33,027 bases of DNA from Candidatus Berkelbacteria bacterium (GTDB lineage: Bacteria > Patescibacteriota > UBA1384 > JAPLVJ01), in assembly GCA_026397155.1 (NCBI GenBank), contig JAPLVJ010000041.1, positions 1-33,027 of the forward strand, read 5' to 3'. Positions 25,949-28,504 of the stretch are shown here, piece by piece. Under the pieces are notes generated by a model, which saw only the letters and a program-made list of their open reading frames with translations, was not told the DNA's origin and made no database searches. How positions within the stretch are numbered: position 1 is the stretch's first letter; each line of letters starts with the position of its first letter. The position numbers were made by a program, and so were the translations under genes.

Positions 25949-28504
25949 ATGAAACTATCAAAAACATACGATCCTTCTAAGGTAGAGGGTAAAATTTATC
26001 GCTTTTGGGAAAAGAAAAAATGCTTTAAACCCGAACTAAAACCCAAAGCAAAACCTTACTGCATTATTATGCCGCCGCCAAATGCCAATGCCCCGATGCA
26101 TTTAGGCCACGCTGTTTTTGTTACTTTGGAAGATTTAATGATTCGATATAAACGCATGAAAGGCATGGCTGCCTTATGGCTACCTGGTGCAGATCATGCT
26201 GGATTTGAAACCCAGGTTGTTTTTGAAAAAAAACTGGAAAAACAAGGCAGAAACCGCTTTGAAATCCCGCGTGAAATACTTTTTAGAGAAATGTGGGATT
26301 TTACTCAAGAAAATAAAAAAACAACAGAAAACCAACTTAAAAAACTCGGCGCTAGCTGCGACTGGGATAGGGAAAAATTTACACTTGATCCAGATATTAT
26401 TAAAATTGTCTACCGCACTTTCAAAAAGCTGTATGATGATGGGCTAATTTATAGGCAATATAGACCAGTAAACTGGTGTCCAAAACACAAAACCGCCCTT
26501 TCTGATCTAGAAACAAAATATATTGAAAAAAATGATCCTCTTTATTACATCAAATATGGACCCTTGACCCTAGCTACTGTTAGACCAGAAACTAAATTTG
26601 GTGATACAGCCGTAGCTGTCAATCCAAAAGACAAACGTTATCAAAAATATATTAAAAAAGAAATTAAGGCAAAAGGAATTTTGGGACCACTAAAATTTAA
26701 AGTCATTGCTGATGAAGCTGTTGATCCAAAGTTTGGCACTGGTGTTGTCAAAGTAACCCCAGCTCATGATCCAATTGACTTTGAAATTTGGCAAAGACAC
26801 GAAAAAGAAATCCCTGGTCCTTGTATTGTGATTAATGAAAGTGGTCGGCTGACAAAAGAAACAGGGAAATTTGCTGGACTAAAAGTACTAGAGGCGCGCG
26901 AAAAAGTGGTTGAAGAAATGAAGAAAATTGGCATTTTAGAAAAAATAGATTCAAGTTACAAACACACAATCGCCACCTGCTACAAATGCGGAAACACGGT
27001 TGAACCACTACCAAAAGAGCAGTGGTTTGTTGCTGTTAATAAAAAAGGTAAATCTGGTAAAGCGCTTGCTCCGGACGCCTTAAAAGCAGTCAAAGAGAAA
27101 AAGGTTCAATTTGTGACCAAGCGATTTGAAAAAATATTTAACCACTGGATGCAAAATATTCGCGACTGGAATATTTCACGCCAAATTGTTTGGGGAATCA
27201 GAATACCAGTTTGGTACTGCCAAAATACAAAGCCATTTGAAGATAAAAAAATGGGCTTTGCTGGCAATATTGTTCCCCAGGTATTTAAAAATAAAACAAA
27301 AACCTATCGCCTACGGGATCACTGCTTTAAGGTTAGCGATAAAGTTGCCTTTGAAAATAGTCAAAAAGGAGAAATTTTCGGCTACGGAACCATCATTGAA
27401 ATTAAAAAAACAACAGTCGAAAAAGTTGACCTCAAAGATCCAAAACATGGAACAACATACAAAAAATTGGATGAACTAATTTTAGCTTTCAAGAAACATC
27501 ATCCTGACAAAAAAGTAACTCCTAAAACATTGGTTTGGATTTATATCTATAAATTTGAGGAAAAGAAAAAGTGCAGTCCCTTGATTACACTAGGTCAAAA
27601 GCCAGCTCAATGTCCGATCTGTGGCGACAAAAATTTATCCCAAGACCCAGATGTCTTTGATACTTGGTTTTCTTCTGGGCAGTGGCCGTTTGCAACCTTA
27701 CAAACAACAAAACCAGGCGATTTTGAAAAATTTTATCCAACAGAAATAATGGAAACTGGCTGGGATATTCTTTTCTTTTGGGTGGCTAGAATGATCATGC
27801 TTGGACTTTATGAAACTGGGAAAGTGCCTTTCAAAAAGGTTTATTTACATGGCTTGGTCCGCGACAAAGATCGCCAAAAAATGAGTAAATCAAAAGGAAA
27901 TGTGATCGATCCCTTGGGCGTTGCCGAACAATACGGAACTGATGCTATTAGAATGGCTCTAGTTTTTGGAACAAACGCTGGAAACGATATTATTATTTCG
28001 GAAGAAAAAATCCGCGGCATGAGAAATTTCGCTAACAAAGTTTGGAATGTGGCAAGATTTGTTTTAATGCAAACTGAAATTGTGGCAAGCTCGGAAGCTC
28101 AAAGTGGGTCGCAAGCGCATTGGAAGGCCGAAGGCCGCACCAATAAAGCGCACATCTTTGAGCGACAAGCGAGCCCAAAAACCATCGCCGACCGAAAAAT
28201 CTTGCAAAAACTCGATAGTCTTATTGCTAAAATTGATAAAGATTTGAACAATTTCCGTTTTGGTCAGGCCGCCAGTGATCTTTACGATTTTATCTGGCAC
28301 GATTTTGCCGATAAGTATATTGAAGAATCAAAAAATCAACTCCAAGACGAAAAAACCAAACAAAACACCCAAGAAACCCTACTCTACACACTTAAAACAA
28401 GTCTCAAATTGCTTCACCCGTTTATGCCCTACGTAACCGAAGAAATTTGGGGAAGGTTACCCGGCTACAAAAAACCTCTAATTGTTTCCGACTGGCCCAA
28501 ATGA
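25949..28504 (+). CDS. valS: valine--tRNA ligase with an internal ASCH-like insertion, a 31-aa element insertion, and no C-terminal coiled-coil domain
   Basis: 851 aa. The HIGH-type motif (PNANAPMHLGHA) and KMSKS (QKMSKSKGN) are present. Editing-domain motifs TKFGDTAVAVNP and GTGVVKVTPAHDP are present. The protein ends right after ...EEIWGRLP...WPK. Confidence 0.93.
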   Translation: MKLSKTYDPSKVEGKIYRFWEKKKCFKPELKPKAKPYCIIMPPPNANAPMHLGHAVFVTLEDLMIRYKRMKGMAALWLPGADHAGFETQVVFEKKLEKQGRNRFEIPREILFREMWDFTQENKKTTENQLKKLGASCDWDREKFTLDPDIIKIVYRTFKKLYDDGLIYRQYRPVNWCPKHKTALSDLETKYIEKNDPLYYIKYGPLTLATVRPETKFGDTAVAVNPKDKRYQKYIKKEIKAKGILGPLKFKVIADEAVDPKFGTGVVKVTPAHDPIDFEIWQRHEKEIPGPCIVINESGRLTKETGKFAGLKVLEAREKVVEEMKKIGILEKIDSSYKHTIATCYKCGNTVEPLPKEQWFVAVNKKGKSGKALAPDALKAVKEKKVQFVTKRFEKIFNHWMQNIRDWNISRQIVWGIRIPVWYCQNTKPFEDKKMGFAGNIVPQVFKNKTKTYRLRDHCFKVSDKVAFENSQKGEIFGYGTIIEIKKTTVEKVDLKDPKHGTTYKKLDELILAFKKHHPDKKVTPKTLVWIYIYKFEEKKKCSPLITLGQKPAQCPICGDKNLSQDPDVFDTWFSSGQWPFATLQTTKPGDFEKFYPTEIMETGWDILFFWVARMIMLGLYETGKVPFKKVYLHGLVRDKDRQKMSKSKGNVIDPLGVAEQYGTDAIRMALVFGTNAGNDIIISEEKIRGMRNFANKVWNVARFVLMQTEIVASSEAQSGSQAHWKAEGRTNKAHIFERQASPKTIADRKILQKLDSLIAKIDKDLNNFRFGQAASDLYDFIWHDFADKYIEESKNQLQDEKTKQNTQETLLYTLKTSLKLLHPFMPYVTEEIWGRLPGYKKPLIVSDWPK
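28083..28175 (+). repeat. 93-nt GC-rich palindromic element, copy 2 (in frame inside valS)
   Basis: It has the same orientation and codon phase as copy 1. The three differences are at element positions 5, 10 and 50. The apex change A to G converts GGC-CGAAA-GCC into GGCC-GAA-GGCC. Confidence 0.9.

Follow-up and report, generated by a model that had tools for sequence, protein, structure and literature searches.

The closest described relative of the domain discussed here is YqfB of Escherichia coli, an N4-acetylcytidine (ac4C) amidohydrolase of the ASCH family, in which the K21A, T24A and R26A variants are inactive and Glu74, His70 and Tyr89 contribute (PMC6972931). Removal of ac4C from tRNA is reportedly shared by divergent ASCH proteins, as all 19 of the 19 tested displayed it. 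This removal is reported to require the Lys and the Thr (or Glu) of the octapeptide, and several isolated ASCH domains deacetylate tRNA without detectable tRNA binding (bioRxiv 10.64898/2026.02.27.708502). The host of the present domain is an aminoacyl-tRNA synthetase, more precisely its CP3, a small, topologically variable subdomain that bridges CP2 and the latter half of the Rossmann fold and in Thermus IleRS contains a zinc motif (PMC7191050). The window, i.e., the whole stretch of DNA analyzed, comprises 33,027 nucleotides of contig JAPLVJ010000041.1 from a Candidatus Berkelbacteria bacterium, and the gene in question is valS (25949-28504, forward strand), encoding a valyl-tRNA synthetase (ValRS) of 851 aa with an ASCH domain nested in its CP3. 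On balance, we favor the view that this nested, mobile domain is a functioning module, most likely an N4-acylcytidine-type hydrolase anchored in ValRS, as suggested by its sequence and by analogy to YqfB.

The identity of the host enzyme is clear. The present genome (G000), a 630-kb Patescibacteria assembly that is 82% complete, yields only one valS match, and the product scores 857.1 bits against NF004349, the NCBIfam valS equivalog (cut-off 704), and 832.7 bits against TIGR00422 (cut-off 612). It matches the ValRS of Thermus thermophilus (1GAX) at an E-value of 4e-167. In addition to the equivalog scores, both defining signatures are present, the HIGH motif as HLGH at 26099-26110 (residue 51) and KMSKS at 27878-27892 (residue 644). 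The alignment to 1GAX pairs query residue 428 with chain residue 421 and query residue 550 with chain residue 433, leaving ~ 121 residues opposite ~ 11 in Thermus. Spacing between the motifs DWxISRQ and DTWFSS, surveyed in 30 class relatives with 28 valS genes of measurable distance, amounts to 165 aa in G000 valS; 26 of these genes fall within 23-75 aa, and the remaining two (G004, G027) harbor another insert, of ~ 232-235 aa. As it reads in frame and its spacing lies far beyond the normal range, the extra segment of ~ 117 residues (425-541) is real. A preliminary description of this DNA had placed such a segment in the ValRS body at about 27220-27610, which is borne out by the open reading frame (ORF), the 1GAX alignment and the class spacing. 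Two of its details need adjustment. The WYC motif is found as described, only at 27212-27220 instead of 27211-27219, so that the in-frame start of the segment is 27221, with 27220 out of frame. Similarly, the stretch from WYC to CPICGD is indeed longer than usual, at 130 residues (C424 to C555) instead of about 140.

A full-length AlphaFold2 model of ValRS, built on 47 ValRS sequences, offers a view of how the host accommodates its guest. The model reaches a predicted local distance difference test (pLDDT) score of 91.4 and a predicted template modeling (pTM) score of 0.83, and the guest domain folds in it exactly as in the model of the isolated insert. pLDDT drops below 50 in two places only, at residues 427-430 and 714-737. 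According to the equivalog score and the model, the host ValRS is otherwise complete, with no sign of damage and a predicted fold that is undisturbed by the guest. The second of the two places (28088-28159) is the sole long low-confidence stretch of the enzyme; it sits in an in-frame 93-nt palindromic element of valS (28083-28175), where the alignment with Thermus ValRS displays a gap.

Profile and structure comparisons identify the insert as a self-contained ASCH domain, to be placed in the Thr-type ("GKTR-like") group, which stands nearest to YqfB and outside the YqfB family proper. Its top Pfam match is ASCH (PF04266) with 19.6 bits and an E-value of 0.0015, at a gathering score of 21.2 bits. 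Because this score falls below the threshold, a six-frame Pfam ASCH search of the G000 genome did not recover the insert. Homologous domains at 32-57% identity do exceed the cut-off (P0027 43.4, P0034 28.5, L046 35.2 and L048 31.3 bits), as do the stand-alone relatives P0036-P0042 found by phmmer (26.5-45.8 bits). Among 1.8 billion representative proteins, an exhaustive phmmer search returned 33 matches, including insert-bearing ValRSs and stand-alone proteins of ~ 110 aa. A search of the PDB with the single insert sequence gave no match, and one with the alignment termed A2 was dominated by ValRS columns and uninformative on the insert. With a profile of the insert and six stand-alone relatives, E. 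coli YqfB (9KYF) came first at an E-value of 1.7e-6, and hhalign against YqfB from E. coli K-12 gave a probability of 91% and an E-value of 1e-6 over 98 columns.

The structural comparison points in the same direction. The insert-only AlphaFold model has a pLDDT of 91.1, and its ten best and all significant Foldseek matches in the PDB belong to the ASCH family, with YqfB first at a TM score of 0.78 (target-normalized). VIA-align superposes the model on YqfB (9kyf_A) with a Z-score of 13.1 and a root-mean-square deviation of 2.0 Å over 99 of 102 residues; Z is 10.7 for PH0355 (2z0t_B) and 7-10 for other ASCH proteins, with model residues 7-113 covered. The modeled fold is a PUA-like beta-barrel superposable on solved ASCH structures. 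Hence, the by-eye alignment to YqfB and the ASCH/PUA-like assignment of the preliminary description agree with Pfam, profile, AlphaFold, Foldseek and VIA-align results, and the core it delimited at 27266-27562 (NIVPQ...YKFEE) lies exactly there. We also considered an intein or another selfish splicing element. This candidate was rejected, as Pfam displays no Hint or intein domain, no Cys/Ser...His-Asn-Cys pattern marks the edges of the insert, and its fold is clearly that of ASCH.

The guest sits in the first CP3 half-knuckle, whose two cysteines, C424 and C542, enclose it. All features of this region lie on the forward strand. C424, which ends the WYC motif, opens the CP3 zinc knuckle as its first Cys and directly precedes the insert; the position is occupied by Cys in 19 of 22 insert-bearing ValRSs. 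It is followed by an N-terminal linker (residues 425-434, 27221-27250) that is predicted to be flexible, with residues 427-430 being the low-confidence place of the full-length model noted above and residues 1-4 of the insert-only model falling likewise below a pLDDT of 50. The ASCH core of ~ 104 residues (435-538, 27251-27562) forms the beta-barrel of the PUA-like class. It contains KTKTYR, the core of the ASCH octapeptide as aligned to YqfB, with K449, T452 and R454 (27293-27310), and further on a conserved loop, D497-P-K-H500-G-T-T-Y504 (27437-27460), located opposite the YqfB loop of His70 and Glu74. A short C-terminal linker (27563-27574), made up of KKK and C542 (27572-27574), leads back into the host with the second Cys of the split CxxC. 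The knuckle hairpin (residues 543-554) and CPIC with C555 and C558 (27575-27622) align with the C438/C441 region of 1GAX; the longer motif CPICGD lies at 27611-27628, followed in the ORF by QDPDVFDTWFSS at 27641-27676. All four knuckle cysteines, C424, C542, C555 and C558, are thus retained as a predicted zinc site. Overall, the insert is basic, with a net charge of + 11 and an isoelectric point (pI) of 9.6.

Comparison with other ValRSs illustrates how the knuckle was split. Relatives without the insert follow the pattern W-Y-C-x-x-C-(11-17 residues)-C-P-x-C-G, and most bearers follow C-[ASCH]-C-G-E..I-V-S..K-P..C-P-x-C. The nearest relative, G011, shares 69% identity in one ValRS half and 65% in the other and has C-D-S-C, a plain CxxC with no insert; Thermus ValRS has a plain CxxC there as well. 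The insertion point varies among bearers: at locus L067, an intact CxxC precedes the ASCH domain, and in P0008, P0027 and L005, the domain resides inside a CP3 that has no cysteines.

In the hhalign alignment, K449, T452 and R454 pair with YqfB K21, T24 and R26, and all three are invariant, in 33 of 33 rows of alignment A2 and in all 22 ValRS bearers. YqfB P90 corresponds to P519 in the insert. Of the 22 bearers, 21 have D497, 21 have H500 and 21 have Y504, and altogether nine positions of the domain are conserved in at least 21 of 22, across distant hosts. The insert is conserved at least as well as the rest of the enzyme; for P0003, identity is 67% in the insert versus 52% and 45% in the body.

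A survey of related genomes found the insert to be rare and present in scattered ValRSs. With the insert as query, a ValRS-embedded homologue was detected in one of 60 same-class relatives (G049) and in two of 400 genomes drawn evenly from the phylum (G162, G338); ~ 1% of the 460 sampled Patescibacteria species carry the domain. In 185,579 species-representative genomes, a pattern scan located 28 loci. The Patescibacteria among them bear Microgenomates, Paceibacterota, Nealsonbacteria, Doudnabacteria, Kuenenbacteria, Parcubacteria and Saccharibacteria labels; the DPANN archaea comprise two Aenigmatarchaeota, one Woesearchaeota and one unclassified archaeon. Six of the loci lie in ValRS and ~ 16 are stand-alone ORFs of 110-155 aa, along with two L32e-ASCH fusions, one ASCH-S5 and one His_Phos_1-ASCH. 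Each of 15 genomes from three architecture classes (15/15) contains exactly one copy. The stand-alone genes share no conserved neighborhood at a blastp threshold of 1e-8 across 16 loci.

Fusions outside ValRS extend this range of architectures, and the domain is best described as one of a small ASCH subfamily of Patescibacteria and DPANN archaea whose settings are interchangeable. In metagenome-assembled genomes of DPANN archaea, the same ASCH subfamily is fused to ribosomal proteins (L046:1294-2112, L047:2557-3360, L048:2992-4098), and these fused domains, together with those of P0013, P0014, P0015 and P0026, are ~ 50-59% identical to the G000 insert. L32e-ASCH is represented by three independent sequences (L046, L047, P0015) and ASCH-S5 by L048. 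Fusions of the types ASCH-L23, S4-ASCH, FtsY/SRP54-type GTPase and NUDIX (P0018) occur in one metagenomic predicted protein each, and L050 and P0022 join the ASCH domain to His_Phos_1. A metagenomic protein of 1972 aa, P0043, weakly resembles the N-terminal half of the insert in three repeated pairs of matches, around positions 500, 870 and 1240 (E ~ 1e-4 each), and may be a repeat protein with ASCH-like half-barrels. Phage origin was considered as well, as the nearest clusters in the ESM Atlas are ASCH families that are largely viral; it was set aside after a tblastn search of 50,697 phage records and a pattern scan of IMG/VR, both of which came back empty.

The history of the domain becomes clearer upon comparing its tree with that of its host. 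In the ValRS tree, computed without the insert columns, the insert-less G011 is the sister of the G000 ValRS with a support of 95. Mapping the ASCH label onto this tree takes eight changes, at least seven of which are forced by well-supported branches, and constraining all bearers to group together costs 800 log-likelihood units (approximately unbiased (AU) test, p 0.019). The domain tree places the G000 ASCH with P0021, P0004, P0006, P0003, P0005, P0009 and P0011 (support 95/88). This grouping is rejected by the ValRS bodies (delta lnL 492, AU p 1.6e-63), and conversely the domain data reject the grouping of the bodies (delta lnL 49, AU p 4.6e-4). Moreover, the ValRS insert of P0023 groups with one stand-alone and one phosphatase-fused form at a support of 100/99. 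Because domain and host trees conflict, the domain has moved between ValRS lineages and architectures. To judge from these trees, the ASCH domain is not ancestral to the G000 ValRS lineage. Either this lineage acquired it once G011 and G001 had branched off, or both of these lost it precisely.

We looked for a footprint of transposition and rejected this candidate, as the insert edges carry no meaningful direct or inverted repeats and there is no clear compositional anomaly. The GC content of the insert is 0.333 versus 0.390, and its GC at third codon positions is the same as in the 5' part of valS. An imperfect direct repeat of 15 nt, AT-rich and 80-87% identical, occurs at 27116-27130, 27227-27241 and 27712-27726. 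The copy at 27227 lies right at the start of the insert and the other two lie in host sequence; in a gene of 37% GC, we judge this repeat to be due to chance.

The CP3 loop also receives other guests. In two genomes of family f4 of the class, G027 (L019:856-1560, reverse strand) and G004 (L020:847-1560, reverse strand), the CP3 knuckle of valS contains a whole His_Phos_1 domain, which scores 93-96 bits, has the RHG motif, and is positioned between CxC and CxxC. P0003 and P0011 accommodate ASCH plus His_Phos_1 in the same CP3 loop. The phosphatase was recently gained or lost there, since P0005, the sister of P0003, contains ASCH only. Plasticity of the loop is also seen in related ValRSs at L017:80-298 (reverse strand), L039:2770-3003 (forward strand) and L022:2752-2994 (forward strand). 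G001, of the same family as G000, and several others have a CP3 without cysteines that contains Ser/Gln/Asn-rich low-complexity sequence, and in others only a few residues are present. G000 itself encodes a separate His_Phos_1 gene, unlinked to valS (G000:C9:10011-10412, L045), with an ORF of 195 aa and a score of 34 bits.

The domain is probably a working module and not a spacer, one that most likely binds a cytidine-type base and hydrolyzes its N4-acyl (amide) group. The site of action would be RNA at the translation machinery, i.e., tRNA held by ValRS or ribosomal rRNA, or else free nucleosides. ValRS would serve as anchor and expression vehicle, still charging tRNA-Val as usual. The hydrolase reading follows from the retention of the K449/T452/R454 centre, as required by YqfB for hydrolysis of N4-acylcytidine. 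From the invariant Lys-Thr-Arg, the phosphatase and NUDIX partners, and the reported general removal of ac4C by ASCH proteins, we infer a catalytic role, and an added RNA- or cytidine-directed hydrolytic function is plausible. The fusions to L32e, S5, L23, S4 and FtsY tie the domain to translation, and its strong conservation, its occurrence as an autonomous unit and the intactness of its host likewise speak for this reading.

Several other explanations of the insert have to be weighed against this one. The preliminary description suggested that the insert is an extra tRNA-contact module making up for a lost C-terminal coiled-coil arm. It was right about the loss, as ValRS stops directly behind its anticodon-binding domain (query residue 850 lies opposite residue 706 of the 862 in 1GAX) and PF10458, an arm typical of bacterial ValRS though not a defining part of it, is not matched, and the basic nature of the insert would suit such contacts. 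The proposed compensation, however, is contradicted by the distribution of arm and insert. Across the 31 class genomes, G000 included, no PF10458 match rises above the cut-off, compared to matches in 10 of 14 reference genomes used as control, and G000 is the only one of the 31 with the insert. Conversely, the ValRSs P0008, P0020 and L067 have both insert and arm, and the closest ValRSs, those of G011 and G001, have neither. Compensation is unsupported because the arm is absent class-wide while only G000 of the 31 has the insert, and because the two coexist in some ValRSs; in addition, a domain that is mostly stand-alone, with one copy per genome, argues against a compensating tRNA-contact module. 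We therefore regard this explanation as highly improbable. A neutral or selfish insertion, in which a mobile domain without function has landed in a tolerant surface loop, would account for the patchy distribution with at least seven gains or losses on the ValRS tree, for the incongruence of domain and host trees, and for the acceptance of a histidine phosphatase and of low-complexity inserts by the same loop. It fits poorly with the strong conservation across distant hosts, at an identity no lower than that of the enzyme body, with stand-alone orthologues being kept as intact ORFs, one per genome, and with the lack of an intein/Hint signature or flanking repeats. Such an origin is very unlikely in our view. 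A further explanation is a non-catalytic RNA-binding or reader module, comparable to PUA, YTH and EVE, that would only bind tRNA or rRNA, perhaps at a modified base, and tether or guide its host protein. The ASCH fold is of the PUA-like class (PUA domains, that of TruB among them, reach Z ~ 5), the insert is basic (+ 11, pI 9.6), its fusion partners include RNA-binding ribosomal proteins, and the ASCH domain of TRIP4 binds nucleic acid (PDB 8yfj and related entries, by title). Yet the buried Thr452 is invariant along with Lys and Arg (33/33), which is the catalytic signature of YqfB, the phosphatase and NUDIX fusions point to nucleotide chemistry, the stand-alone form is the commonest, and isolated ASCH domains can deacetylate tRNA without detectable binding (bioRxiv 10.64898/2026.02.27.708502). 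A reader role of this kind is a serious rival, but we consider it rather unlikely.

The hydrolase reading itself has to face a number of observations that weigh against it. Conservation of the Lys and Arg could reflect RNA binding alone. As aligned, four of the seven invariants of the YqfB family are unmatched in the insert (D27 by L455, H70 by D497, E74 by T503 and Y89 by H518). The hhalign pairing is uncertain in the loop of residues 497-504, where Asp497 and His500, both conserved, could take the place of the unmatched YqfB residues. In the octapeptide G-x-K-x-x-[T/E]-x-R, the Gly is represented by Asn448, which adjoins the Lys, making the motif one residue shorter; most homologues of the insert retain the Gly. 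None of the NCBIfam models, including that of YqfB, matches the 130-aa insert at E-values up to 10. With ~ 99% of the sampled Patescibacteria devoid of the domain, any role must be dispensable. Finally, the ac4C writers TmcA (PF13718) and TmcAL (PF05636) were found neither in G000, at its completeness of 82%, nor in 18 other carriers, four of them archaeal. The lack of a known writer in these 19 carriers leaves a self-made ac4C substrate unsupported, and ac4C from the host, another acyl-cytidine, or something else may instead serve as the natural substrate. Symbionts of this kind lack nucleotide synthesis, and host-derived ac4C may fit salvage by such organisms.

Taking the favored hydrolase reading one step further, we tentatively propose an active amide-hydrolase cassette that moves horizontally among translation genes (ValRS, uL23, eL32, uS4, uS5, FtsY) of ultra-small bacteria and archaea, often with a histidine phosphatase. 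Its target, in tRNA or at the ribosome, would be an acylated cytidine or similar base for which these organisms have no known writer, stemming from host-derived modified RNA or nucleosides or from an undescribed modification. This broader picture is doubtful as a whole; if true, it would newly connect tRNA charging in symbiotic microbes with RNA de-modification or the salvage of nucleotides.

Few enzymes are as conserved as the aminoacyl-tRNA synthetases, whose cores rarely take up new catalytic-type domains. Our literature search, which covered ASCH in connection with ValRS, tRNA synthetases and the Candidate Phyla Radiation, found no paper on this architecture. A fold newly shown to erase ac4C from tRNA is now found in ValRS with its key residues intact; the work on this erasure mentions TmcAL, a synthetase-like enzyme, in a different context (bioRxiv 10.64898/2026.02.27.708502). 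If the domain is active, it would hint at an unknown cycle of RNA modification and erasure, or at salvage of host-derived modified nucleosides in episymbionts with minimal genomes. The locus also shows, in a clean natural case, how a domain can move into a single loop (CP3) of an essential enzyme.

Among the known systems, E. coli YqfB (9KYF, 9KYH, 1TE7) is the best match to the insert, with the same fold over the whole length and a similar size of ~ 103 residues. Both have the Lys-x-x-Thr-x-Arg centre and the Pro that follows the Tyr89 position (P519 in the insert). The two differ in most of their sequence, as identity is 17%. Furthermore, YqfB is a free-standing enzyme, whereas the G000 domain is nested and its activity is a predicted one; its octapeptide has N-K in place of G-x-K, and its loop reads D497-x-x-H500-x-x-x-Y504. 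The ASCH beta-barrel is shared with PH0355 (2Z0T), EF3133 (1T62), the Lactobacillus crispatus ASCH protein (3S9X), TTHA0113 (2DP9), ZmASCH (5GUQ), PF0455 and PF0470 (1S04, 1XNE), EOLA1 and TRIP4. Z-scores of VIA-align range from 7 to 10.7 for most of the other solved ASCH proteins and are ~ 6 for TRIP4. ZmASCH, TTHA0113, EOLA1 and TRIP4 are of the "GKER" type with Glu for Thr, and many solved ASCH proteins are enlarged by additional helices or domains. An ASCH domain nested in an aminoacyl-tRNA synthetase is not among them.

On the side of the host, the Rossmann, CP1 editing, CP2, CP3 and anticodon-binding domains all align with those of Thermus ValRS (1GAX, 1IVS), and the four cysteines are shared. 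In contrast to the Thermus enzyme, the G000 ValRS has ~ 117 additional residues between the first and second Cys of the knuckle, lacks 155 C-terminal residues including the coiled-coil arm, and contains a further in-frame element of 31 aa (residues 712-742) that is disordered. A small enzyme domain on a class Ia synthetase is also represented by the NCBIfam exception model ileS_w_GNAT, an N-acetyltransferase with IleRS, compared here by model name only. The His_Phos_1 domains in the ValRSs of G004 and G027 provide the counterpart from within the class, in which the same CP3 loop houses a different guest domain.

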